From positions 1,070,726 through 1,134,725 of the forward strand of contig OZ223197.1 of assembly GCA_965140345.1 (NCBI GenBank): a stretch of 64,000 bases of DNA, in the 5' to 3' direction. Position numbers and translations under genes: made by a program. The notes under the pieces were generated by a model. That model worked only from the letters and a program-made list of their open reading frames with translations. It did no database searches and had not been told where the DNA came from. Positions within the stretch are counted from its first letter, which is position 1. Each line of letters begins with the position of its first letter. This DNA is from Candidatus Kapaibacterium sp. Lineage in GTDB: Bacteria; Bacteroidota; Ignavibacteria; Kapaibacteriales; UBA2268. This document shows, one piece after another, positions 20,830 to 40,464 of the stretch.

Positions 20830-20964
20830 ATGCTGGACTTTTTGCATGATAATTCAATTTTTGTAGTGCTTGGCATTACATTGATAATCTGGACAGGTAT
20901 AGTAACTTATATGATGTCCTTAGATAAAAAAGTAAAGAAGCTTGAAGAGCTTAATGAAGAATAA
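20830..20964 (+). CDS. ccmD: CcmD-like small single-TM protein (44 aa), not in the supplied ORF track
   Basis: ATG directly follows the ccmC stop. Sequence MLDFLHDNSIFVVLGITLIIWTGIVTYMMSLDKKVKKLEELNEE is a TM helix followed by a charged tail. Confidence 0.4.
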   Translation: MLDFLHDNSIFVVLGITLIIWTGIVTYMMSLDKKVKKLEELNEE

Positions 20965-21007
20965 AAAAGAAAGCCGGTGTCATTTTGATGTGATACCGGC
21001 TTTTTTC
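20963..21007. terminator. bidirectional rho-independent terminator between convergent ccmCD and the TlpA-like lipoprotein gene
   Basis: Hairpin agccggtgtca..tgataccggct flanked by an A-run and a T-run. Confidence 0.6.
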
Positions 21008-21013
21008 ATATGC

Positions 21014-23660: not shown

Positions 23661-24056
23661 ATGAAAGCCAAATATATTATCACGGCAATAATTGCGCTCG
23701 CATTTGTAGCGCTTGCTTATTCTGCTTTTGACAGCAGTAAAATTGAATATACGGATTTTACTTATGCAAAAAAAACAGGTAATACCGTTCAGGTTACAGG
23801 CTCGTGGGATAAATCTGAAAATTACGATTACAATGCCGAAACCAACACATTCACTTTTACTATGATTGATGAGCAAGCAAATAGCTCAAAAGTAGTTTAC
23901 CACGGTGCAAAACCAAATAACTTTGATATTGCGCCTATGGTAGTAATTAAAGGACAGTTTGAAGATGGTATTTTTATGGCATCAGATATTCTGACTAAGT
24001 GTCCATCAAAGTACGAAGCTGATTTCGAAGAAATCAAGAAAAACGCAAAAGTATAA
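23661..24056 (+). CDS. ccmE: cytochrome c maturation heme chaperone CcmE, CxxxY variant
   Basis: N-terminal TM anchor, OB-fold region VVYHGAKPNNFDIAPMVVIKGQF, and the C-terminal motif TKCPSKY where canonical CcmE has HxxxY. Confidence 0.72.
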   Translation: MKAKYIITAIIALAFVALAYSAFDSSKIEYTDFTYAKKTGNTVQVTGSWDKSENYDYNAETNTFTFTMIDEQANSSKVVYHGAKPNNFDIAPMVVIKGQFEDGIFMASDILTKCPSKYEADFEEIKKNAKV

Positions 24057-24071
24057 CACTAACAGAAAGGA

Positions 24072-26234
24072 ATGCCTATGTTTGGCTCTATACTTATACA
24101 CGGTCTCCTTGGGCTGTCTATAATCACAACTATAATGTACTTCTTAGCTTACAAGAGAGAGAATATTGTTAAAACAGCAAGTGCTTTTTATCATGTTATA
24201 ACTCTGGGAATGATAGTTGCTTCTGCGTATCTTCTTTACAATGTTATGACTCACAATTTCTCTTTTACATATATATGGAGATATTCTTCTACAGAGCTTC
24301 CTAATTTCCTACTTGCAACTACATTTTATGCAGGACAGGAAGGTTCATTTACTCTATGGGCTTTGATGCTCTCAATTATTGGTAGTTTGGTGATTCCTTA
24401 TGTAAGAAAGCATAACTACGAAGCTCCTGTGATGAGTATGTACTCTCTGATACTGGTATTTATATTTCTGATTATGATAAATAAAAGTCCATTTGAATAT
24501 ATTTGGAATTCATTCCCTGACCAAAATATAGAAGTAGGCTTTATGCCTGCAAATGGTAATGGTTTGAATCCTATATTGCAAAACTATTGGAATGTTATTC
24601 ACCCTCCTATTTTATTCTTAGGATTTTCTGCAATGTCTGTGCCTTTTGCTTTTGCATTTGCAGGACTAATTAAACGCGATTATTCTAACTGGATAAAAGT
24701 TTCTATGCCCTGGACTTTATTTGCCACAGGCTTACTTTCTTTAGGTATTATGCTTGGTGGTTTCTGGGCTTATGAAACTCTTGGCTGGGGCGGTTTCTGG
24801 GGATGGGATCCTGTTGAAAATGCATCACTTATTCCTTTGCTAACTGCGATTGCTCTTGTTCACACTATGCTTGTACAAAAACGTACAGGCGGTCTAATAC
24901 GTACTAACTTTATTCTTGCCATAACAAGTTTTGTATTAGTAATTTACTCTACGTTCTTAACTCGAAGTGGAGTATTAGGCGATTCTTCTGTTCACTCTTT
25001 TGGTGATCCGGGGCAGCTTACTTATACTTTGCTTTTAGCATTTTTAGCTTTCTTTACTTTGATCGGTGTTGTTGCATTGCTTATGAGATATTCTGATATA
25101 AGTAAAGTTGCTGGAAAAATGGACTTCCAGATGAGCTCCAGAGAATTTATGCTTTCATTGGGATCTCTGGTAATTCTAGCAATTGCAGCTTTTGTTCTTG
25201 TCGGAACAAGCTGGCCAATAATTCAGGAAATTCTCGGTCAGTCAAAAACTGGTGTTCAGATTTCTATCTATGACAAAGGCTCATTACCACTTACTGCAAT
25301 TGGATTAGTACTTATGGTATTCTCAGTTTTCTTAAACTGGAAAGTGACACCTGCAGAAATCTTAGTGAAAAAAACATGGCTAAGCATAATATTAGCTGCT
25401 GTATTTACTAATATTTTTATTTTGATTGGCTTCAATGAATTCCGTCATATTGCGTTAGGTTTTGCTGCTTTCTTTGCATTATTTACTAACCTGCAATACT
25501 TATTCAAAACAGTAAAAAAATATCCTAGATTAATTGGAGGATATTTATCACACTTTGGATTTGCGCTTTTGATTTTGGGTGTAATTGCTACAGGTGGCTA
25601 TACTGAATCTAAACAAATGACTTTGAAAAAAGATCAAGTTCAGGAATTTGCAGGCTACGAATTTAAATTTATCGGTAAAAATCAAATTGAAAAAGAATTT
25701 AAAGATAGAGAAAAATTCCAATATTTAGTTCAAGTTACAAAGAATGGTGAAAGTGATGTAGCTAAACCAATAATCTACTATTCTGACTTCAATCAGAGAC
25801 AACAGCCTTTCTTGGAACCTGGAATTTTGGAATCATTTTCTGCTGATATTTATCTTTCTCCAAATGTAGCTGACTATAAATACGATATTCCTATTATATC
25901 ATTAGGTAAAGATGACAAAATCGAAGTACCTCTTACAGATAATCTTGAGATGAAGGTGACAGGTTTCGATATGCAGTCAATGATGTCAGGTGATTCCAAT
26001 AATGGTTTACTTCCTTTTGGCGCAATAGTAGAATTTTCAGATGGAGACAATACATTCGTTGATACTCTATATTCAAATTTAGATGCGCAGTCTTTTGTTG
26101 GCGATCCGAACTGGAAAACAATGGAAAAATATGGTGCTGATATTGCTTTAGTACAATTTATTCCTAATATGCAAGAAATGGGCAAATCCCGCGTCGCTTT
26201 TATTTTTGAAGCAAGCCGGGGCAGAAATGCCTGA
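24072..26234 (+). CDS. ccmF: cytochrome c-type biogenesis protein CcmF; the reading frame ends prematurely (apparent +1 frameshift) and the C-terminus continues in 26206..26448
   Basis: WWD motif GWGGFWGWDPVENASL and a polytopic N-terminus. The frame stops at 26234 shortly after a T5 run. Confidence 0.8.
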   Translation: MPMFGSILIHGLLGLSIITTIMYFLAYKRENIVKTASAFYHVITLGMIVASAYLLYNVMTHNFSFTYIWRYSSTELPNFLLATTFYAGQEGSFTLWALMLSIIGSLVIPYVRKHNYEAPVMSMYSLILVFIFLIMINKSPFEYIWNSFPDQNIEVGFMPANGNGLNPILQNYWNVIHPPILFLGFSAMSVPFAFAFAGLIKRDYSNWIKVSMPWTLFATGLLSLGIMLGGFWAYETLGWGGFWGWDPVENASLIPLLTAIALVHTMLVQKRTGGLIRTNFILAITSFVLVIYSTFLTRSGVLGDSSVHSFGDPGQLTYTLLLAFLAFFTLIGVVALLMRYSDISKVAGKMDFQMSSREFMLSLGSLVILAIAAFVLVGTSWPIIQEILGQSKTGVQISIYDKGSLPLTAIGLVLMVFSVFLNWKVTPAEILVKKTWLSIILAAVFTNIFILIGFNEFRHIALGFAAFFALFTNLQYLFKTVKKYPRLIGGYLSHFGFALLILGVIATGGYTESKQMTLKKDQVQEFAGYEFKFIGKNQIEKEFKDREKFQYLVQVTKNGESDVAKPIIYYSDFNQRQQPFLEPGILESFSADIYLSPNVADYKYDIPIISLGKDDKIEVPLTDNLEMKVTGFDMQSMMSGDSNNGLLPFGAIVEFSDGDNTFVDTLYSNLDAQSFVGDPNWKTMEKYGADIALVQFIPNMQEMGKSRVAFIFEASRGRNA

Positions 26235-26448
26235 ACCTGTAGAATACTTTAGCTTTGAAGCTTCAGTAAAACCGCTAATAAATTTGGTTTGGGCAGGTAC
26301 GCTTGCAATCGTGGCAGGTTTCTTCATTGCTATTGGCAAATACACAAAAAATAAAGAAACAAATTTTGAAAAAACAAACTCAAAAGATGTAGAAATCGAA
26401 AATAATAGCAATAATTTAGAAGAAAAGCCGTATATTGCTAGTAAGTAA
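26206..26448 (+). CDS. ccmF: C-terminal fragment of CcmF in the +1 frame (final TM helix)
   Basis: VKPLINLVWAGTLAIVAGFFIAIGKY resembles the conserved CcmF C-terminal helix. The TTG 'start' here is probably not a real initiation site. Confidence 0.5.
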   Translation: MKQAGAEMPEPVEYFSFEASVKPLINLVWAGTLAIVAGFFIAIGKYTKNKETNFEKTNSKDVEIENNSNNLEEKPYIASK

Positions 26449-26471
26449 TATATTATATATCAGGAGAAATC

Positions 26472-27080
26472 ATGTTTTACAAACAACTAATAGCAATTAT
26501 TTTTGCGATGACTTTGGCATTTACCACTGCTTGTAGCAGCGATGCAGATAAAACTCAAACTAAAGATGTAGCAGCTAACTTGAGCGCAGAAGCTCCGGCT
26601 GCAAATACCTCCGTTTTTGTTATGGAAAATTTAAGTACCGGAGAAAATCCTTTACCTGATTTTACATGGCATCAGGACGGCAAAACAATTAAATTTTCTG
26701 ACTATATCAAAGGTAAAACTGTTTTTCTTAACTTCTGGGGAACCTGGTGTCCTCCTTGTAGAGCAGAAATTCCTCATATAGTTGAATTGCAAAAAGAGTA
26801 TAAAGATAAAGATTTTGTAGTGGTTGGCTTTGCATTAGAACGTAACCAAACGGTTTCAGGTGTTCAAAAATTTGTGGACGCTAAAGGAATCAATTACATT
26901 AACTTTTTTGCTTTAGGTTCACTACAAAATACAGCGAAACTTGTTGAGCATTTTGGCGGAGTGCAGGCTGTTCCGACTACTTTCATCTTCAACAGTAAAG
27001 GCGAAAAAGTAGAAACTATAGTTGGCGGAAGAGACTACAAATCGTTTAAAGCATCAATTGAAAAAGCACTGAAAAGCTAA
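26472..27080 (+). CDS. thiol:disulfide interchange protein (CcmG/ResA/TlpA family) with a lipoprotein signal
   Basis: FLNFWGTWCPPCRAEIPH thioredoxin motif; signal peptide with TTAC. Confidence 0.8.
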   Translation: MFYKQLIAIIFAMTLAFTTACSSDADKTQTKDVAANLSAEAPAANTSVFVMENLSTGENPLPDFTWHQDGKTIKFSDYIKGKTVFLNFWGTWCPPCRAEIPHIVELQKEYKDKDFVVVGFALERNQTVSGVQKFVDAKGINYINFFALGSLQNTAKLVEHFGGVQAVPTTFIFNSKGEKVETIVGGRDYKSFKASIEKALKS

Positions 27081-27103
27081 TCAATTTAAAAATACAAAGA
27101 TGT

Positions 27104-27139
27104 AAAAAGGGAGACTTTAGAGTTTCCCTTTTTTTTTTG
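27104..27139. terminator. rho-independent terminator (bidirectional) after the ccmG-like gene
   Basis: Hairpin gggagact-ttag-agtttccc followed by T10. Confidence 0.6.
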
Positions 27140-27171
27140 TGAATGTCAAATATATTATTAGATATATTGAA

Positions 27172-27349
27172 TAGGCTGTCTTGGAAAGTAGAGTAATCTT
27201 TTAAAAAGCCAGACAAAGTGATAAACTTAATCTAAGACAAGTGCAACCGCAAAGGTCACTGAGCTAGCAAAGCGAGTTGAAGTGTAGCTTGCGGTTATTA
27301 TCACAGGTTTTAGTTAGATTATAGTCTAAATATGACTCATAAGACAGCC
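27172..27349. ncRNA. candidate structured ncRNA or structured 3'UTR (GC-rich, nested inverted repeats); identity unknown
   Basis: Perfect 10-bp closing stem (aggctgtctt at 27172-27181 pairing with aagacagcct at 27340-27349). Internal pairs taatctaa/ttagatta and aaccgcaa/ttgcggtt. Local GC is well above the surrounding intergenic DNA. Confidence 0.25.
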
Positions 27350-27373
27350 TCTCTACAGATATGATATTTGTTT

Positions 27374-27886
27374 CTACACTAACATCAGTGCCAGAGTTGT
27401 ACCAAGCCCCGCAATGAGCGAAGTAACAAAGATTATACTTAATGTAGCCATTTTGCTTTCGTAGAGATGCATATATGCATAAAGTCCTATTGTAGGAAGC
27501 AATTCATCACTGTGCTCAGATTCTAACTCGCCAACATTTTTAGTGCTTCTTTTCGCTTTTATCATCGGTCCTTTTCCATTTTGCAGAGTCCATTCCTTTG
27601 CAATCATCCTACCATCTGTCTTGAAATTGTACCTTGTATCCTGATACCAGATTTCTGCATTTTTAAAATTTTGATCAAAACAAATATCTGCAATTATATC
27701 GCCATTTCCGCTCTTGAGTTTTAACTTTTTGCTGAGTAAACCATCTGACTTGAAGAAATAGCTGCTATTCTGAGCTTCGCAGATGCAGCGATAACGATTT
27801 GACATACGGAGAAGTGCAACTTGCTTTTTGGATTGCCCTAGTGAAAGAGTTCTGTCATCGGAATTATAATCCCAGTGATATTTCAT
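27374..27886 (-). CDS. hypothetical protein with a C-terminal TM anchor
   Basis: 170 aa. C-terminal hydrophobic helix LSIIFVTSLIAGLGTTLALMLV. Confidence 0.4.
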   Translation of the reverse strand: MKYHWDYNSDDRTLSLGQSKKQVALLRMSNRYRCICEAQNSSYFFKSDGLLSKKLKLKSGNGDIIADICFDQNFKNAEIWYQDTRYNFKTDGRMIAKEWTLQNGKGPMIKAKRSTKNVGELESEHSDELLPTIGLYAYMHLYESKMATLSIIFVTSLIAGLGTTLALMLV

Positions 27887-28025
27887 TTCTATACTCCCAC
27901 ATTTAATATACTGGAATGTATATATTTTTTATTTCCCCGACAAGTCATTTTTTGTTTATTATATAAAAAAACCACAAGTATTACTACCTGTGGTTCGAAA
28001 GATATATTTTAATAGTCTTTGTTTT

Positions 28026-28676
28026 TTATTCGCCAAATTTCATTAAGTTTTCCATACTGGGAACTTTATTAGGATCAACAAATTTAATCCCTTTAGGTGC
28101 TTCAAATTTTGAATCCGGCACTGATACATCCAATTTGATACTAGTAGCTTCCATTTTAGATTTCATTCCCCAACCGCTACTCTCTGATTTCAAAGTCAGA
28201 TTTTTCCAAACCCAAATTTTGATATCCATACCCATTGTATTCCCTTTCCATATCTCACATTTCTTTCCTGCAACTGTTCCTGTTTCACTTAGTTTTGTAT
28301 ATTCCATTGCTTTTAACATTTCTTTACCAAATTCTGCAGGGTCTATATTTTCTTCAGCCATGGCTACTGCAACTTCATTTTTCATCTTAATACCAGTCTT
28401 TTTATCAAAATCCACAGAAATCATATCATAACCATCTAGTATAACAACTTCATTTTTTTCAGAAGAAAACCCCATAGCTTCTGCACTTGATTTTTCATAA
28501 GTTGCTTCTTTAAAACCATATTCCTTGATGTACTTTGTTTTAGTACCTTTAGAACTACCTGAAAGTTTATATTCTACAATAGCAGATTTAAATTCATATA
28601 ACTTGAATTTATTAGAACCGGCAAACGCTACTGAGAATACAGCAAGCAACAAAAACAACTTTAGCACATTTTTCAT
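28026..28676 (-). CDS. hypothetical secreted protein
   Basis: Signal peptide MKNVLKLFLLLAVFSVAFA. No known domain. Confidence 0.45.
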   Translation of the reverse strand: MKNVLKLFLLLAVFSVAFAGSNKFKLYEFKSAIVEYKLSGSSKGTKTKYIKEYGFKEATYEKSSAEAMGFSSEKNEVVILDGYDMISVDFDKKTGIKMKNEVAVAMAEENIDPAEFGKEMLKAMEYTKLSETGTVAGKKCEIWKGNTMGMDIKIWVWKNLTLKSESSGWGMKSKMEATSIKLDVSVPDSKFEAPKGIKFVDPNKVPSMENLMKFGE

Positions 28677-28746
28677 TTTACTTTAAACTATTTAGTTAAA
28701 CAAATATGATACAATATAATAGAATTTTTATTAATATTTGTTTTTT

Positions 28747-29502
28747 TTACTTCAAACTAAACTTAAATACAAAGAAAAGTTGCTCTTTTTCAGGTTGCAA
28801 ATATAATGCTGTACCAATTGGAAGACTGAAACTATCGGATAGTTTTAAATCCTGATCCAGGGAAATACCGAGATTCACTACCGCCCATTTATCTTCCGGT
28901 ACATCGTAGGTTCTTGTTTTACCTTTAGTAAAGCCGGCATGTACTTTCAATTTGTGACTATCTATAAGAAAAGGATACGCTAATTCGAAATAGACAGATT
29001 TATCCGGATCATTATAGAAGCAATGATCAAATAAAAACTGAATTGGAAATTCTTCAGGTCCTTTGTATTGCAGAGAAATATTATACCAGTGCCCTCCCTG
29101 TTCTACAAATTCTCCTTCTTCATTTTCTCTGCCTTTATCAAAATTGAAATATCCTTTGCCTTCACAAGGATAAAAGAAATCTGTTATAAAAGGAGAAAAT
29201 GTACCAATTGATGTTTCCCAATTATATTTGAGAACCAAATCTACTTCATTGAATTTTACTGTTTCATCATTATAATCATAACCTGATGCAAATGCCTGAG
29301 AGCCCCAAAATTCAAATTCAAAATTATATCCTTTGAAGTTAAATTTGGGCTGGATTGCCGGAGAGTCTCCAACATCCATTGCGCGCCAGTTATAGGCACT
29401 TACAAAATCAACAGCGGAATTTACTTCTACAGCAAAAAGATTAGCAGAAGAGCAGAAAAGAATCGCCAACGCGGCAAGAAGTCTTGTCATGTCAGTACTC
29501 AA
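28747..29502 (-). CDS. hypothetical secreted or outer-membrane protein
   Basis: Signal peptide. Aromatic-rich, beta-rich composition. Confidence 0.45.
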   Translation of the reverse strand: MSTDMTRLLAALAILFCSSANLFAVEVNSAVDFVSAYNWRAMDVGDSPAIQPKFNFKGYNFEFEFWGSQAFASGYDYNDETVKFNEVDLVLKYNWETSIGTFSPFITDFFYPCEGKGYFNFDKGRENEEGEFVEQGGHWYNISLQYKGPEEFPIQFLFDHCFYNDPDKSVYFELAYPFLIDSHKLKVHAGFTKGKTRTYDVPEDKWAVVNLGISLDQDLKLSDSFSLPIGTALYLQPEKEQLFFVFKFSLK

Positions 29503-29641
29503 ATAATATATGGATAAGTTTAAACTATCGAATGCAAATTAGCTCTTTAATTAATACCAAGCTCTTAACAAGATATTAAACCTTTGTAAAGCAATAGCTT
29601 CGAATTATTTAGAAAAATGACTAAGTAAATAATACATTCTA

Positions 29642-29670
29642 TTGACAATTGTGTTATATGTGAATTTATA
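29642..29670 (+). promoter_or_regulatory. sigma-70-like promoter candidate, TTGACA-17-TTTATA
   Basis: TTGACA at 29642-29647 and TTTATA at 29665-29670, about 75 nt upstream of the 29749 gene. Confidence 0.3.
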
Positions 29671-29748
29671 GATACTTGCTAATATACTTTAAATTTTGTG
29701 CTGAAAGTTGTATATTGGCTATAAGAATTAATCAATAAAAGGTGCAAA

Positions 29749-30219
29749 ATGAAAAGAATCATAGTACTTGTAGTAATTGCATTCTCTATAATATTTTCCG
29801 GTAATTTATCCGCTAAAAAGCTAAAAGAGGCTGAAGTGCCTGCCGTTGTAGTTAAAAAATTTAAAAGTATGCACGGTTCAGCAGACAAAATAGAGTACAA
29901 TATTAAAGAAGAAAATGGCAAAGATATGTACCGAATCCGTTTTGAAGAAGAAGAATATGACTACGAATATTTCTTCGAAAAGGACGGAACAATTTATAGA
30001 ATGGATGGCGAAATGCCTATTAATGAGCTTCCTGAAAGAATAAAAAAAATCATAGACAAAAAGTTTGAAGGCGAACAAATCGTAGAAGTAGAAAAAATAA
30101 TTCGCAATTACGATGAAAAAGGCTATCAAATTAAGCTTGTAAAAGGAAATAAAGAGACTAAAGTTGAGTTTGACAGCAAAGACAGAGTTGTAGAAATAAA
30201 CATGAAGTTTAAATACTAG
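29749..30219 (+). CDS. secreted PepSY-like repeat protein
   Basis: Signal peptide and two repeats of the PepSY-like beta-lactamase-inhibitor-like fold (..YEYFFEKDGTIY.. and ..YQIKLVKGNKETKVEFD..). Confidence 0.45.
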   Translation: MKRIIVLVVIAFSIIFSGNLSAKKLKEAEVPAVVVKKFKSMHGSADKIEYNIKEENGKDMYRIRFEEEEYDYEYFFEKDGTIYRMDGEMPINELPERIKKIIDKKFEGEQIVEVEKIIRNYDEKGYQIKLVKGNKETKVEFDSKDRVVEINMKFKY

Positions 30220-30222
30220 AAT

Positions 30223-32448
30223 ATGTCCGAACAAAAAATAGATATTGCAAATAACGAGCTTCAGTTTATCAAAGGCATTGGCCCCAGACGAGCTGAAGCT
30301 TTTATAAAAGAAGGTATTCTTACACCTTTGGATTTGTTATATTATTTTCCTAGAACTTATATAGACAGATCCGGTACCAAGACTTTACAACAACTTAAAA
30401 ATGACCTCAAAAATATCAATAATTTCACTGCTGAAAAAAATCTCTATTTTAATTCTGAATCAACCGCGGTTGCTAAAATAGTTTCAAAAGAGATAAGGGA
30501 ATTCGGCAAAAAAAGGCAAATGCTTTCACTTACAATCAGTGATAATTCCGGTGCAAATGCTAAGATAATATTTTGGAATAGTGTTAAATATTTTGATAAA
30601 ATGTATCAAAGAGGTCAACTTCTTGCAGTAAGCGGAAAGGCAGAATTGGACAGATATAATTTCATTAGTTTTACGCATCCTGATATTGATATAATTGATG
30701 AAGAAGATTCCAAGCTTTATTCAGACGGCGCGATATTACCAAAATATAAGCTTTCTGAGCCACTCAGGAAAGCCGGCATAACGATGAAATTGATGCGTAA
30801 CATCATCGCTACTTGCTTAAAAAAATATGCTTCAAGTGTGGTAGAATCTTTTCCTCCTGCACTGATGAGCGAGTTTCAATTTCCGCCAAAAGCACATGCT
30901 ATATTTAACCTTCATTTCCCTAGAAATAAAGATCTACTCGAACGCTCCAAGTTAAGGATTAAGTTTGAAGAACTCTTCCTATTTCAGCTCTTTTTGAATC
31001 TAAAAAGAGATAAGATTCGATCTGAAGAACAAGGTGTTAAAGTAAAACCTAAAAGCCAGTCCGCAAGAAAATTATATGATATTTTACCTTTTGATTTAAC
31101 ACCAGATCAGAAAAAAGTTTTACGTGAAATTGCGTCCGACATGGAAGCCGGTGTTGCAATGAATAGACTTTTGCAGGGAGATGTTGGATCCGGAAAAACT
31201 ATTGTTGCGATTTTAAGTATGCTTATGGCAATTGATTCCGGTTTACAAGTTGCTTTTATGGCTCCTACTGAAATTCTTGCAGAACAACACTTCCATAGTA
31301 TAAAAAACTTTCTTCAGGATTTAGATTTAAATGTAGTTCAGCTTGTAGGCGGGCAAAAAGCACGAATGCGCAGAGATGTGTTGGAAAAAATAGAAACCGG
31401 ATATGCAAATATTATAGTTGGAACTCACGCATTATTTCAAAGCGAAATCAATTATAATAAACTGGGCTTGGTGATAATAGATGAGCAGCATAGATTTGGA
31501 GTTATGCAAAGAGCCGATCTGATAAAATTAGCTAAAAAATCATTTAATGACAACTCCATTGCTCCTCATATATTAGTGATGACAGCCACCCCTATCCCCA
31601 GAACTTTGACTATGACGGCTTATGGAGATTTGGACGTCTCAATTATAAAATCTAAGCCAAAAAATAGAAAACCAATCTTGACTAAAGTAGAATTTGAAAG
31701 TAATCACGATAAAGTTTTTGATTTTGTAAGAAGTGAAGTTAAACAAGGACGACAAGCTTTTATAGTTTTTCCATTTGTAGAAAAGTCTGAAAAAATTGAA
31801 GAAGTGAAATCTGCAACTGAGTACTATGAACCGCTTCAGGCAGTCTTCCCTGAATTTAAATTGGGACTACTTCATGGCCAGATGTTCTGGTACGAAAAAG
31901 AAGAAGCAATGCAAAACTTTCTAAATAAAGAATATGATATTTTAGTTGCTACAACAGTGATAGAAGTGGGTATTGATATACCAAATGCCAGTGTTATGGT
32001 TATAGAAAATGCAGAAAGATTTGGTTTGTCTCAATTGCATCAGCTGAGAGGCAGAGTTGGCAGAGGCGGTGAACAGTCATATTGTATTCTTATGACAAAA
32101 GACAATTACAAGTTTCAGCTAAATAAAAAAGAGCAGGCTGAAAACGCAAAATCTGCTGCTATAATCAGATTGAAAACTATGGCAGAAACTACGGACGGTT
32201 TTAAAATATCAGAAGTTGATCTGCAGCTCAGAGGTCCGGGTGATATTCTAGGAACAAAACAGGCAGGTCTCCCCGACTTTAAATATGCTGATTTAGTAAA
32301 TGACGGCGACATTATGGAGATAGCAAAAAAGATGGCAATTAAAATAATTGCAGAAGATCCACATCTTAGAAGCCAGGATAATAGACTTTTAAGAGCAGAG
32401 ATGTCCAGAAATTACTTCTCTGATTCTAACTTTTTTGATATTGCTTAA
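30223..32448 (+). CDS. recG: ATP-dependent DNA helicase RecG
   Basis: Walker A DVGSGKT, DEQH box, and motifs VMTATPIPRTL and HQLRGRVGRG; N-terminal wedge domain. Confidence 0.92.
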   Translation: MSEQKIDIANNELQFIKGIGPRRAEAFIKEGILTPLDLLYYFPRTYIDRSGTKTLQQLKNDLKNINNFTAEKNLYFNSESTAVAKIVSKEIREFGKKRQMLSLTISDNSGANAKIIFWNSVKYFDKMYQRGQLLAVSGKAELDRYNFISFTHPDIDIIDEEDSKLYSDGAILPKYKLSEPLRKAGITMKLMRNIIATCLKKYASSVVESFPPALMSEFQFPPKAHAIFNLHFPRNKDLLERSKLRIKFEELFLFQLFLNLKRDKIRSEEQGVKVKPKSQSARKLYDILPFDLTPDQKKVLREIASDMEAGVAMNRLLQGDVGSGKTIVAILSMLMAIDSGLQVAFMAPTEILAEQHFHSIKNFLQDLDLNVVQLVGGQKARMRRDVLEKIETGYANIIVGTHALFQSEINYNKLGLVIIDEQHRFGVMQRADLIKLAKKSFNDNSIAPHILVMTATPIPRTLTMTAYGDLDVSIIKSKPKNRKPILTKVEFESNHDKVFDFVRSEVKQGRQAFIVFPFVEKSEKIEEVKSATEYYEPLQAVFPEFKLGLLHGQMFWYEKEEAMQNFLNKEYDILVATTVIEVGIDIPNASVMVIENAERFGLSQLHQLRGRVGRGGEQSYCILMTKDNYKFQLNKKEQAENAKSAAIIRLKTMAETTDGFKISEVDLQLRGPGDILGTKQAGLPDFKYADLVNDGDIMEIAKKMAIKIIAEDPHLRSQDNRLLRAEMSRNYFSDSNFFDIA

Positions 32449-39611: not shown

Positions 39612-40214
39612 ATGGATGATAAAGTACAAGTTGTAGTTTTGGGATTATCAGCTAGTCCGGCAAGTAATAACGCTTACGCTTTAATATTAAAAGAGTTAGA
39701 CGGAGATAAAAGATTACCGATAATAATCGGAGCTTTTGAAGCACAGGCAATAGCACTTGAAATGGAAGGTGTGGTACCTCCTCGCCCTATGACTCATGAT
39801 TTATTAAAAAAGATAATTGAAGCATTCGGTGGCAATTTGAGCGAAGTGCACATTAATGATTTGAAAGAGGGAACCTTTTTTGCTACTTTAAGATTTGAAC
39901 TTATGGATTTAAATATTGATGCGCGCCCAAGCGATGCAATTGCTCTTGCAGTTAGATTCAGCGCACCAATATTTATCAACAGAGACATTTTGGAAGAGAC
40001 TGGCCACGTACCCGAAGGTAGCGAACATATTGAAGATGATGAGTTGGATGACACTTTAGAACCAACTAGCGTTCCCGCTACTCCTAAAGAACCTGTAAAT
40101 GAATCTCCTATCGAAGCTTTAAATAGAAAGTTAGATAAAGCAGTCGAAGATGAAGATTATGAAACAGCTGCAAAATATCGAGATGAAATAAAAAAACTTT
40201 TGGATAATCAATAA
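39612..40214 (+). CDS. bifunctional nuclease (BFN/DUF151) family protein with a C-terminal UVR motif
   Basis: VVLGLSASPASNNAYALILKE..RPMTHDLL (BFN domain) and a C-terminal ..AVEDEDYETAAKYRDEIKKL (UvrB/C-type UVR). The ATG at 39612 is preferred. Confidence 0.7.
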   Translation: MDDKVQVVVLGLSASPASNNAYALILKELDGDKRLPIIIGAFEAQAIALEMEGVVPPRPMTHDLLKKIIEAFGGNLSEVHINDLKEGTFFATLRFELMDLNIDARPSDAIALAVRFSAPIFINRDILEETGHVPEGSEHIEDDELDDTLEPTSVPATPKEPVNESPIEALNRKLDKAVEDEDYETAAKYRDEIKKLLDNQ

Positions 40215-40222
40215 AATCTCCT

Positions 40223-40230
40223 TATATTTG
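40223..40230 (+). promoter_or_regulatory. TAtaTTTG (-7-like) motif 15 nt upstream of the first tRNA
   Basis: Matches the TAnnTTTG consensus. Confidence 0.25.
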
Positions 40231-40244
40231 TACTCTCTTTTGGA

Positions 40245-40318
40245 GCCGGGGTAGCTCAGTTGGTTAGAGCATCGGAATCATAATCCGAGTGTCGGGGGTT
40301 CAAATCCCTCCCCCGGTA
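40245..40318 (+). tRNA. tRNA-Met (anticodon CAT), elongator-type; tRNA-Ile2 (lysidine) cannot be excluded
   Basis: Manual cloverleaf fold: acceptor gccgggg/ccccggt, D-arm tagctcagttggttagagca, anticodon loop atCATaa, T-loop ttcaaat. CCA is not encoded. Confidence 0.88.
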
Positions 40319-40377
40319 CATAACTTCACAAAAGTTATGTATCGAGAAAAATCTCACTCCAGAAGAAAAATATTGTT

Positions 40378-40451
40378 GCCGGGGTAGCTCAGTTGGTTAG
40401 AGCATCGGAATCATAATCCGAGTGTCGGGGGTTCAAATCCCTCCCCCGGTA
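40378..40451 (+). tRNA. tRNA-Met (anticodon CAT), identical second copy
   Basis: 74/74 identical to the copy at 40245..40318; the 59-nt spacer contains a small hairpin. Confidence 0.88.
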
Positions 40452-40464
40452 CAATAACAAATTT

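Follow-up and report, generated by a model that had tools for sequence, protein, structure and literature searches.

Prokaryotic MITEs are shorter than 500 bp and have terminal inverted repeats of about 4-30 bp (PMC10969869, section 2.1). AT-rich intergenic DNA is their preferred target; they often lie at the 3' end of a gene and are transcribed with it, and in RNA they form long stem-loops (PMC10969869; PMC3184786). The stability of an mRNA can be altered via RNase III in the case of Correia elements, and via RNase E in the case of ERIC (PMC10969869, section 4.1; PMC3184786). Target-site duplications wane with the age of the copy (PMC10969869).

The closest described systems are ERIC of enterobacteria, Correia (CREE) of Neisseria and Nezha of cyanobacteria. 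All are 100-250 bp in length, with terminal inverted repeats and no open reading frame, and the element described here, which lies in a 64,000-nt stretch of Candidatus Kapaibacterium DNA (the window), shares these features. Like them, it is intergenic, occupies the 3' end of a gene, is predicted to give a long imperfect stem-loop in RNA, and varies in presence between genomes (PMC3184786; PMC10969869). It is 178 bp long with 10-bp terminal repeats, has no coding capacity, and shows presence/absence polymorphism, all of which are features of MITEs. It differs from ERIC, Correia and Nezha in that its sequence resembles none of theirs, it lacks a target-site duplication (TA or other), it has only one copy in 64 kb, and no partner transposase is known for it. 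We consider it most likely to be a new, degenerate example of the small palindromic non-autonomous repeats. The more specific reading that we tentatively prefer is that of a decayed MITE-like palindromic insertion, carried passively in the 3'UTR of a gene that we call orf170; if so, it adds to the examples of small, palindromic mobile elements that have settled in 3'UTRs.

Results

Structure of the element and its surroundings

The element is located between the stop codon of orf170 and a bidirectional terminator, 23 nt past the stop. The features of the region, in window coordinates, are as follows.

20831-20965: CcmD-like membrane ORF, ~44 aa, upstream of the CcmE/CcmF/trx cluster
20967-21006: bidirectional terminator after the CcmD-like ORF
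23661-27080: system I cytochrome c maturation cluster (CcmE 23661-24056, CcmF 24072-26234, trx 26472-27080)
26472-27080, plus strand: trx, a TlpA/ResA/CcmG-like thiol:disulfide oxidoreductase, terminal gene of the ccmE-ccmF-trx cluster
27104-27139: bidirectional intrinsic terminator, common to trx (plus strand) and orf170 (minus strand)
27140-27373: extra DNA relative to the closest relatives, consisting of the element with 33 nt and 23 nt of AT-rich DNA on its two sides
27173-27350: palindromic element, 178 bp, bounded by perfect 10-bp terminal inverted repeats
27173-27182: left terminal inverted repeat, AGGCTGTCTT, at the trx-proximal end
27218-27224 and 27298-27304: inverted repeat GTGATAA/TTATCAC
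27228-27235 and 27314-27321: inverted repeat TAATCTAA/TTAGATTA
27218-27321: region of the crossing pairs, GTGATAA/TTATCAC and TAATCTAA/TTAGATTA
27245-27296: core hairpin, AACCGCAA (27245-27252) with TTGCGGTT (27289-27296), around a 36-nt interior
27341-27350: right terminal inverted repeat, AAGACAGCCT, at the orf170-proximal end
27374-27886, minus strand: orf170, a 170-aa conserved hypothetical protein with a hydrophobic C-terminus, stop at 27374

The terminator hairpin (27104-27133) has a 13-bp stem, followed by T10 on the plus strand and T5 on the minus strand; 293 nt separate the trx gene from the orf170 stop. The trx gene stops 5' of this terminator, and is unaffected by the element. The orf170 protein matches no protein family, and has only two homologues among 5.8 billion proteins, which leaves no intermediate relatives to compare; the trx protein has no exact match on record. 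The AT-rich flanks of the element contain a weak outer inverted repeat (27147-27158/27359-27370).

The element was originally predicted, from the sequence alone, as a candidate structured non-coding RNA between the CcmG-like terminator and the convergent stop at 27374. This placement is right (the terminator is the hairpin at 27104-27133 with its T-run), and all of the listed inverted repeats are present. The terminal stem exists as a perfect 10 bp, with 158 nt between AGGCTGTCTT and AAGACAGCCT, although its coordinates had been given one base too low. The TAATCTAA/TTAGATTA pair is an exact 8 bp rather than the predicted 10 bp, while GTGATAA/TTATCAC and AACCGCAA/TTGCGGTT are as described, with 36 nt between the arms of the latter. 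The second and third inverted repeats do cross, as had been noted, and because of their order along the sequence they must be either mutually exclusive or pseudoknotted. The element had also been called GC-rich; this holds only in comparison with the immediate flank (28% GC). The GC content is 37.6% in the element, 33.4% in the window as a whole and 34-41% in the coding sequences nearby.

That the element is highly self-complementary was an overstatement, even though the repeats are real, since it folds only moderately better than chance. The minimum free energy is -50.8 kcal/mol on the plus strand (z -2.65; 2 of 200 shuffled sequences fold as well) and -46.0 kcal/mol on the minus strand (z -3.10; 1 of 200). 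When 178-nt windows were scanned across the 64 kb with correction for GC content, the element ranked 11th of 1596 on the plus strand, where a tRNA pair and an ordinary terminator region were above it, and fell outside the top 12 on the minus strand. The plus strand folds 7-12 kcal/mol better than the minus strand in both of the strains described below, on account of G-U pairs (four on the plus strand); both strands have similar z-scores, so this advantage points to no functional strand. The terminal 10-mer has only two copies in the 64-kb window, namely the element's own ends. By an estimate from base composition, 64 kb of AT-rich DNA should contain a few tens of perfect 10-bp inverted repeats that fit within 200 nt, so that only the combination of repeats is unusual.

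The strongest-folding 178-nt window of the plus strand is at 20831-21012 (z -4.3). Its fold is explained by the CcmD-like ORF and the bidirectional terminator that follows it, and is ordinary.

The same locus in relatives and in a sister strain

The two closest syntenic relatives (CALNXW010000016.1, here L001, and JBFHIJ010000007.1, here L002) have the same gene order as the window; in these relatives trx is followed by convergent genes of 168/169, 223/212 and 251/247 aa. In both relatives the trx terminator hairpin directly adjoins the stop of the convergent gene, and the element is missing; trx and the convergent gene are 51 nt apart in L001 and 57 nt apart in L002, compared with 293 nt in the window. 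The extra bases in the window thus number ~234-240 (27134/27140-27373), and lie on the orf170 side of the terminator, which would place them in the 3'UTR of orf170. Identity to the orf170 protein is 71% for the L001 orthologue and 41% for that of L002, so L002 is the outgroup, and the extra DNA is most simply an insertion in the window's lineage. The extra DNA (~234 nt) exceeds the 178-bp unit in length, which leaves it uncertain where the inserted unit truly begins and ends. An nhmmer search of 80 loci, syntenic or otherwise related, gave nothing like the element.

A sister strain (L081; ena:ERZ21831251:ctg13067l, 3.65 Mb) was found through its identical orf170 protein. Over 4.5 kb its identity to the window is 95.7%, and it contains the element, so that at this conserved site the two strains of the window species have the element and L001 and L002 do not. 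The two copies of the element differ at 6 of 178 nt (3.4%) and the left spacers at 4 of 92 nt, while the divergence elsewhere (ccmF, trx, orf170 and three other intergenic regions) is 0.5-1.2%, or about 0.8%; two of the ten intergenic differences are changes in homopolymer length, and are possibly long-read assembly errors. Four of the six differences in the element are clustered at 27185-27203. None falls in a predicted pair, so that the terminal stem and core hairpin are intact and there are no compensatory changes. The L081 copy folds somewhat better than that of the window (z -4.07 and -3.33).

Two other observations were made in these comparisons. In an Ignavibacteria MAG (L018, 3475-3502), a hairpin of the form AGGCTGTTTT-loop-AAGGCAGCCT is found directly 3' of the orthologous trx; the likeness of its stem to the termini of the element is possibly a coincidence. 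In addition, the 216-aa orf216 and its following spacer (window 28026-28746) differ between the window and L081 at 22% and 14% of nucleotides, respectively, while the genes on either side differ by 0.5-2%. From its sequence this segment looks like one that has been replaced or is hypervariable; orf216 has no Pfam or NCBIfam family match.

The element as a possible RNA or protein gene

A dedicated non-coding RNA gene is not supported, given that there is no Rfam match, no convincing promoter, no terminator of its own, no counterpart at this locus in the two closest relatives, and a divergence between strains that exceeds that of the neighbouring DNA and is without compensation. With Rfam 15, only two tRNA-Met genes pass the gathering score in the whole window. 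At E <= 10, every weak match over 27050-27450 falls on the neighbouring terminator, and the element alone (27168-27356) gives a single match with E=5; in neither interval is there a match to 6S or 6S-Flavo. ARAGORN and Tandem Repeats Finder found nothing in the region. Hammerhead and other ribozyme cores, weighed by eye, found no backing in Rfam and were rejected. A small-protein gene was likewise rejected, as there is no ORF of at least 45 codons (the longest open frame that overlaps the element has 44), and no gene is called at the element in L081.

No promoter of Bacteroidetes type or sigma-70 type points into the element. What comes closest is TATATTG (27163-27169), an imperfect -7-like box that is one T short and has its nearest TTTG 23 nt further upstream. 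The same window contains two identical tRNA-Met (CAU) genes, 133 nt apart from start to start (40199-40452), and 14 nt before the first of these is a perfect Bacteroidetes-type promoter (40199-40230) of the form TTTG-N20-TATATTTG (TTTG-N20-TAtaTTTG), which suggests that sigma-A promoters of Bacteroidetes type are in use in this organism. On neither strand is the closing stem of the element followed by a T-run, while the real terminators in the window have clear T-runs. In its location the element resembles intrinsic terminators and terminator-like repeats of the SPRITE type, but differs from these in having no T-run, and the real terminator is a separate structure (27104-27133).

It is thus highly improbable that the element is an independent plus-strand small RNA, whether 6S-like or some other regulator, whose 5' and 3' ends form the 10-bp closing stem. 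Its length of ~178 nt and its predicted fold, in which a closing stem, a large asymmetric and mostly unpaired interior and an irregular apical hairpin follow one another, are loosely like those of 6S RNA (RF00013, RF01685). The plus-strand fold is the more stable one in both strains, with its four G-U pairs, and TATATTG at 27163-27169 would place the start near 27173. Against this, the covariance models give no 6S, 6S-Flavo or other Rfam match at E <= 10; the closing stem is only 11 bp; the box and its distant TTTG compare poorly with the perfect tRNA promoter; there is no T-run at the far end; and the element sits directly downstream of a strong terminator. It is also missing from the locus in relatives (L001, L002; 80 loci), and is less conserved than the flanking DNA. 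The stand-alone regulatory RNA of the original prediction is therefore not supported, for want of an Rfam match, promoter or terminator and of a counterpart at this locus in the two closest relatives. Of the checks it had proposed, the covariance-model search matched no family to the element, and covariation comes down to two strains with zero compensatory changes and to two relatives without the element. Its fallback, a structured 3'UTR of the minus-strand gene, does fit the anatomy, as the element lies between the orf170 stop and the terminator. Should the element indeed be an insertion of this kind, the case would mainly be a reminder that self-complementarity alone does not make an intergenic stretch an RNA gene.

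Search for further copies

No second copy of the element was detected in the 64-kb window by exact or 3-mismatch pattern, by blastn with a word size of 7, or by nhmmer with --max; nothing else in the window resembles it as a possible source, and no further copy is present in about 0.5 Mb of related loci. A relaxed search for the pair of terminal repeats in the window and related loci (up to two mismatches per arm) gave 38 matches, compared with 20-24 in shuffled sequences, none of them convincing. The exact 21-nt core has no match in metagenome or viral contigs. In viral contigs, the terminal-repeat pair was not found at all, and the nine matches to the extended end GAGGCTGTCTTAAAAG are all coding-sequence coincidences. 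The element and three related repeats gave nothing by blastn against phages and plasmids, and a literature search for the terminal sequence returned only unrelated primers.

There is no target-site duplication: the flanks are ...TTGAAT and CTCTAC..., with no adjacent direct repeat. Since such duplications fade with age, their lack is only weak evidence against a MITE. No cognate transposase was identified; none lies near the related repeats described below, and the plasmid, phage and viral collections gave no match to the element. The original prediction had named a degraded repeat or MITE as what would overturn its RNA; the evidence points that way, except that the element is single-copy in the 64-kb window.

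Dispersed hairpin repeats with the same termini

A scan of metagenome contigs with the pattern AGGCTGTCTT-N{145,172}-AAGACAGCCT matched 35 loci. By a rough estimate this is about the number expected by chance alone, so that the link to a family rests on additional shared bases and not on the count. Many of the matches fall in coding sequence by coincidence, are duplicates, or are long perfect palindromes. Two groups nevertheless have bases in common beyond those that the pattern demands:

Low-GC group: at least eight contigs (L085, L086, L095, L096, L100, L102, L106, L116), intergenic hairpins of 166-192 bp
High-GC group: L097 2317-2481, L097 8953-9135 and L114 1230-1407

The low-GC group has the consensus (T)AG-AGGCTGTCTT-AAAAGT ... 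ACTTTT-AAGACAGCCT-CT. Its arms are near-continuous over 45-55 nt, and the minimum free energies are -62 to -78 kcal/mol, with the exception of the weaker L096 (-43). The interiors are unrelated, but contain common modules (TCTCACCGAAGGTAA and AACCRCRAAGG) and are built of repeated words (CACGAA, CGCAGAT, CGCAAAG). These hairpins follow the stop codons of genes that are unrelated to one another, at a distance of 7-80 nt; among their sites are those between PPDK and PEPCK, between multihaem cytochrome genes, and at an acyltransferase; the L102 repeat is between convergent genes, as is the window element. T-runs follow the repeats of L085, L096 and L116.

In the high-GC group, L097 has two inverted copies 6.4 kb apart on a 12-kb contig, which are 75% identical, and L114 is a third copy (79%). 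These copies have unrelated flanks, and the two in L097 have no transposase between them. Three-base direct repeats flank GAGGC...GCCTC in L114 (CAA), and in L106 (TTA) and L096 (TTT) of the low-GC group.

Judged by their sequences, the AGGCTGTCTT/AAGACAGCCT-ended hairpins are genuine dispersed repeats of 165-192 nt, a size range that is imposed by the scan pattern. For repeats with AGAGGCTGTCTT...AAGACAGCCTCT ends we found no family in Rfam and no name in the literature. Separately, the scan matched near-perfect palindromes of 170-190 bp, with minimum free energies down to -176 kcal/mol (L083 3508-3683, L090 11267-11450, L109 2578-2768, L111 32-200); these may either be genuine long palindromes or have arisen by fold-back during assembly.

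Relationship of the element to the hairpin repeats

The window element shares with the AGAGGCTGTCTT...AAGACAGCCTCT repeats their identical outer 10-mers, their size class (178 bp, within a range set by the search), a site shortly after a stop codon (23 nt), and the ACCGCAAAG/CTTTGCGGT inner stem of L095 and L102. An end profile was built from the family ends with the imposed 10-mers excluded. The combined score is 6.3 for the window and 6.4 for L081, compared with -12.6 +/- 7.3 for the null (P about 0.006), and both are above all scan matches outside the family. The likeness beyond the 10-mer is confined to one end, that proximal to orf170, which reads GACTCAT-AAGACAGCCT-CT as against a family consensus of GACTTTT-AAGACAGCCT-CT. 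Here the window scores 4.7-5.0 and L081 8.9-9.1, with a family range of 5.2-13.9, so the L081 copy is the closer of the two to the consensus. The trx-proximal end (-6.7 ungapped, 1.3 with a gap) is not family-like beyond the 10-mer.

In the interior, the best matches are those of L102 and L095, which have the ACCGCAAAG inner stem in common with the window element; the AACCGCAAAGG word of the core hairpin also forms an inner stem of L102, in a 15-nt match. These similarities are weak (z 2.7 for L102 and 3.5 for L095, among 35 comparisons), and the remaining interiors are unrelated. Unlike the family, the element does not have near-continuous arms of 45-55 nt, and its free energy is about -50 kcal/mol compared with -62 to -78 kcal/mol. 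Its ungapped inward pairing, at 1 of 6 and 4 of 12 positions, is that of chance matches, while family members pair at 5-6 of 6. That the window element is a decayed copy of these repeats is therefore plausible but unproven.

Discussion

In the reading that we prefer, a non-autonomous palindromic DNA would have entered the lineage after its split from the closest sequenced relative, and would have landed in the very short spacer between the orf170 stop and the bidirectional terminator shared with trx. From its position, we infer that it would be transcribed only within the orf170 mRNA, which would have a long irregular hairpin ~23 nt past the stop and upstream of the terminator hairpin. The arms would have decayed, so that pairing is left only at the 10-bp termini and in three short inner repeats. 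The effect would most likely be neutral, in keeping with passive carriage, or else a modest change in 3'-end stability or processing, as with ERIC and Correia. The analysis demonstrates the structure of the element, the extra DNA relative to L001 and L002, the lack of Rfam matches and of signals, and the occurrence of dispersed repeats that end in the same way; the mobility of the window copy, its co-transcription and its lack of function are all inferred in this account.

The likeliest of the other explanations, though a doubtful one, is that the DNA is a functionless, lineage-specific spacer that was never mobile (the remnant of a deleted gene, a product of repair or slippage, or a local expansion of a palindrome), with complementarity that is partly chance and 10-mers shared by coincidence. 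A fold with z of only -2.65/-3.1 and a rank of 11 of 1596 speaks for such a spacer, as does an inverted repeat that, as in chance matches, goes no further than 10 bp without a gap. The raised divergence between strains, the excess of the extra DNA over the 178-bp unit, the lack of a target-site duplication and the single copy in all DNA compared are also in its favor. It does not readily account for the end-profile P of about 0.006 and the L081 end that is inside the family range, for a length of 178 bp and a site 23 nt past the stop that match the family, or for the ACCGCAAAG inner stem common to L102 and L095, and nothing elsewhere in the window could have been its source. Next in order of likelihood, and unlikely in our view, is a selected, cis-acting hairpin of the orf170 3'UTR, serving in protection from 3' exonucleases or as a site for RNase III or RNase E, and perhaps co-opted from a mobile element; the plus-strand small RNA discussed above comes last of these three. 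The minus-strand site of the hairpin, between the stop at 27374 and the terminator at 27104-27133, means that it should be co-transcribed, and ERIC and Correia are precedents (PMC3184786; PMC10969869, section 4.1). Both strains keep the element with all six differences outside the predicted pairs, and the L081 version folds better (z -4.07, -3.33). On the other hand, the L001 and L002 orthologues do without it, two sequences with zero compensatory changes are no sign of structural selection, it evolves faster than neighbouring intergenic DNA, and the minus-strand RNA, which is the one that orf170 would produce, folds 7-12 kcal/mol worse than the plus.

A broader interpretation, which we regard as decidedly unlikely, is that the AGAGGCTGTCTT...AAGACAGCCTCT hairpins are one undescribed, cross-phylum mobile class that targets gene 3' ends or terminators, and that the window copy is a domesticated 3'UTR structure of orf170. 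Such a class would combine conserved termini with an interior free to vary, would be mobilized by an enzyme yet to be identified, and would occur in low-GC Bacteroidota-like contigs, in high-GC contigs and, in degenerate form, in a Kapabacteria-like genome. The trx-proximal end of the window element, which is not family-like, its discontinuous arms and its otherwise unrelated interior set it apart from the AGAGGCTGTCTT repeats. Whatever the status of the window element, the AGAGGCTGTCTT-ended repeats are the more interesting of the two, as they span very different GC contents and are found directly after stops; they may be the trace of a widespread transposase/end pair, or of a portable 3'-end module, within the Bacteroidota-Chlorobiota group.

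Other features of the window

The AT-rich palindrome at 27145-27172, next to the left end of the element, was considered as a dif/Xer site and rejected, since by eye it matches at 8 of 11 positions in one arm and 4 of 11 in the other. The cumulative GC skew of the window has a shallow minimum at about 28000-32000, which follows gene orientation: it coincides with a switch in orientation (divergent genes at 29503-29748, then recG at 30223-32448).
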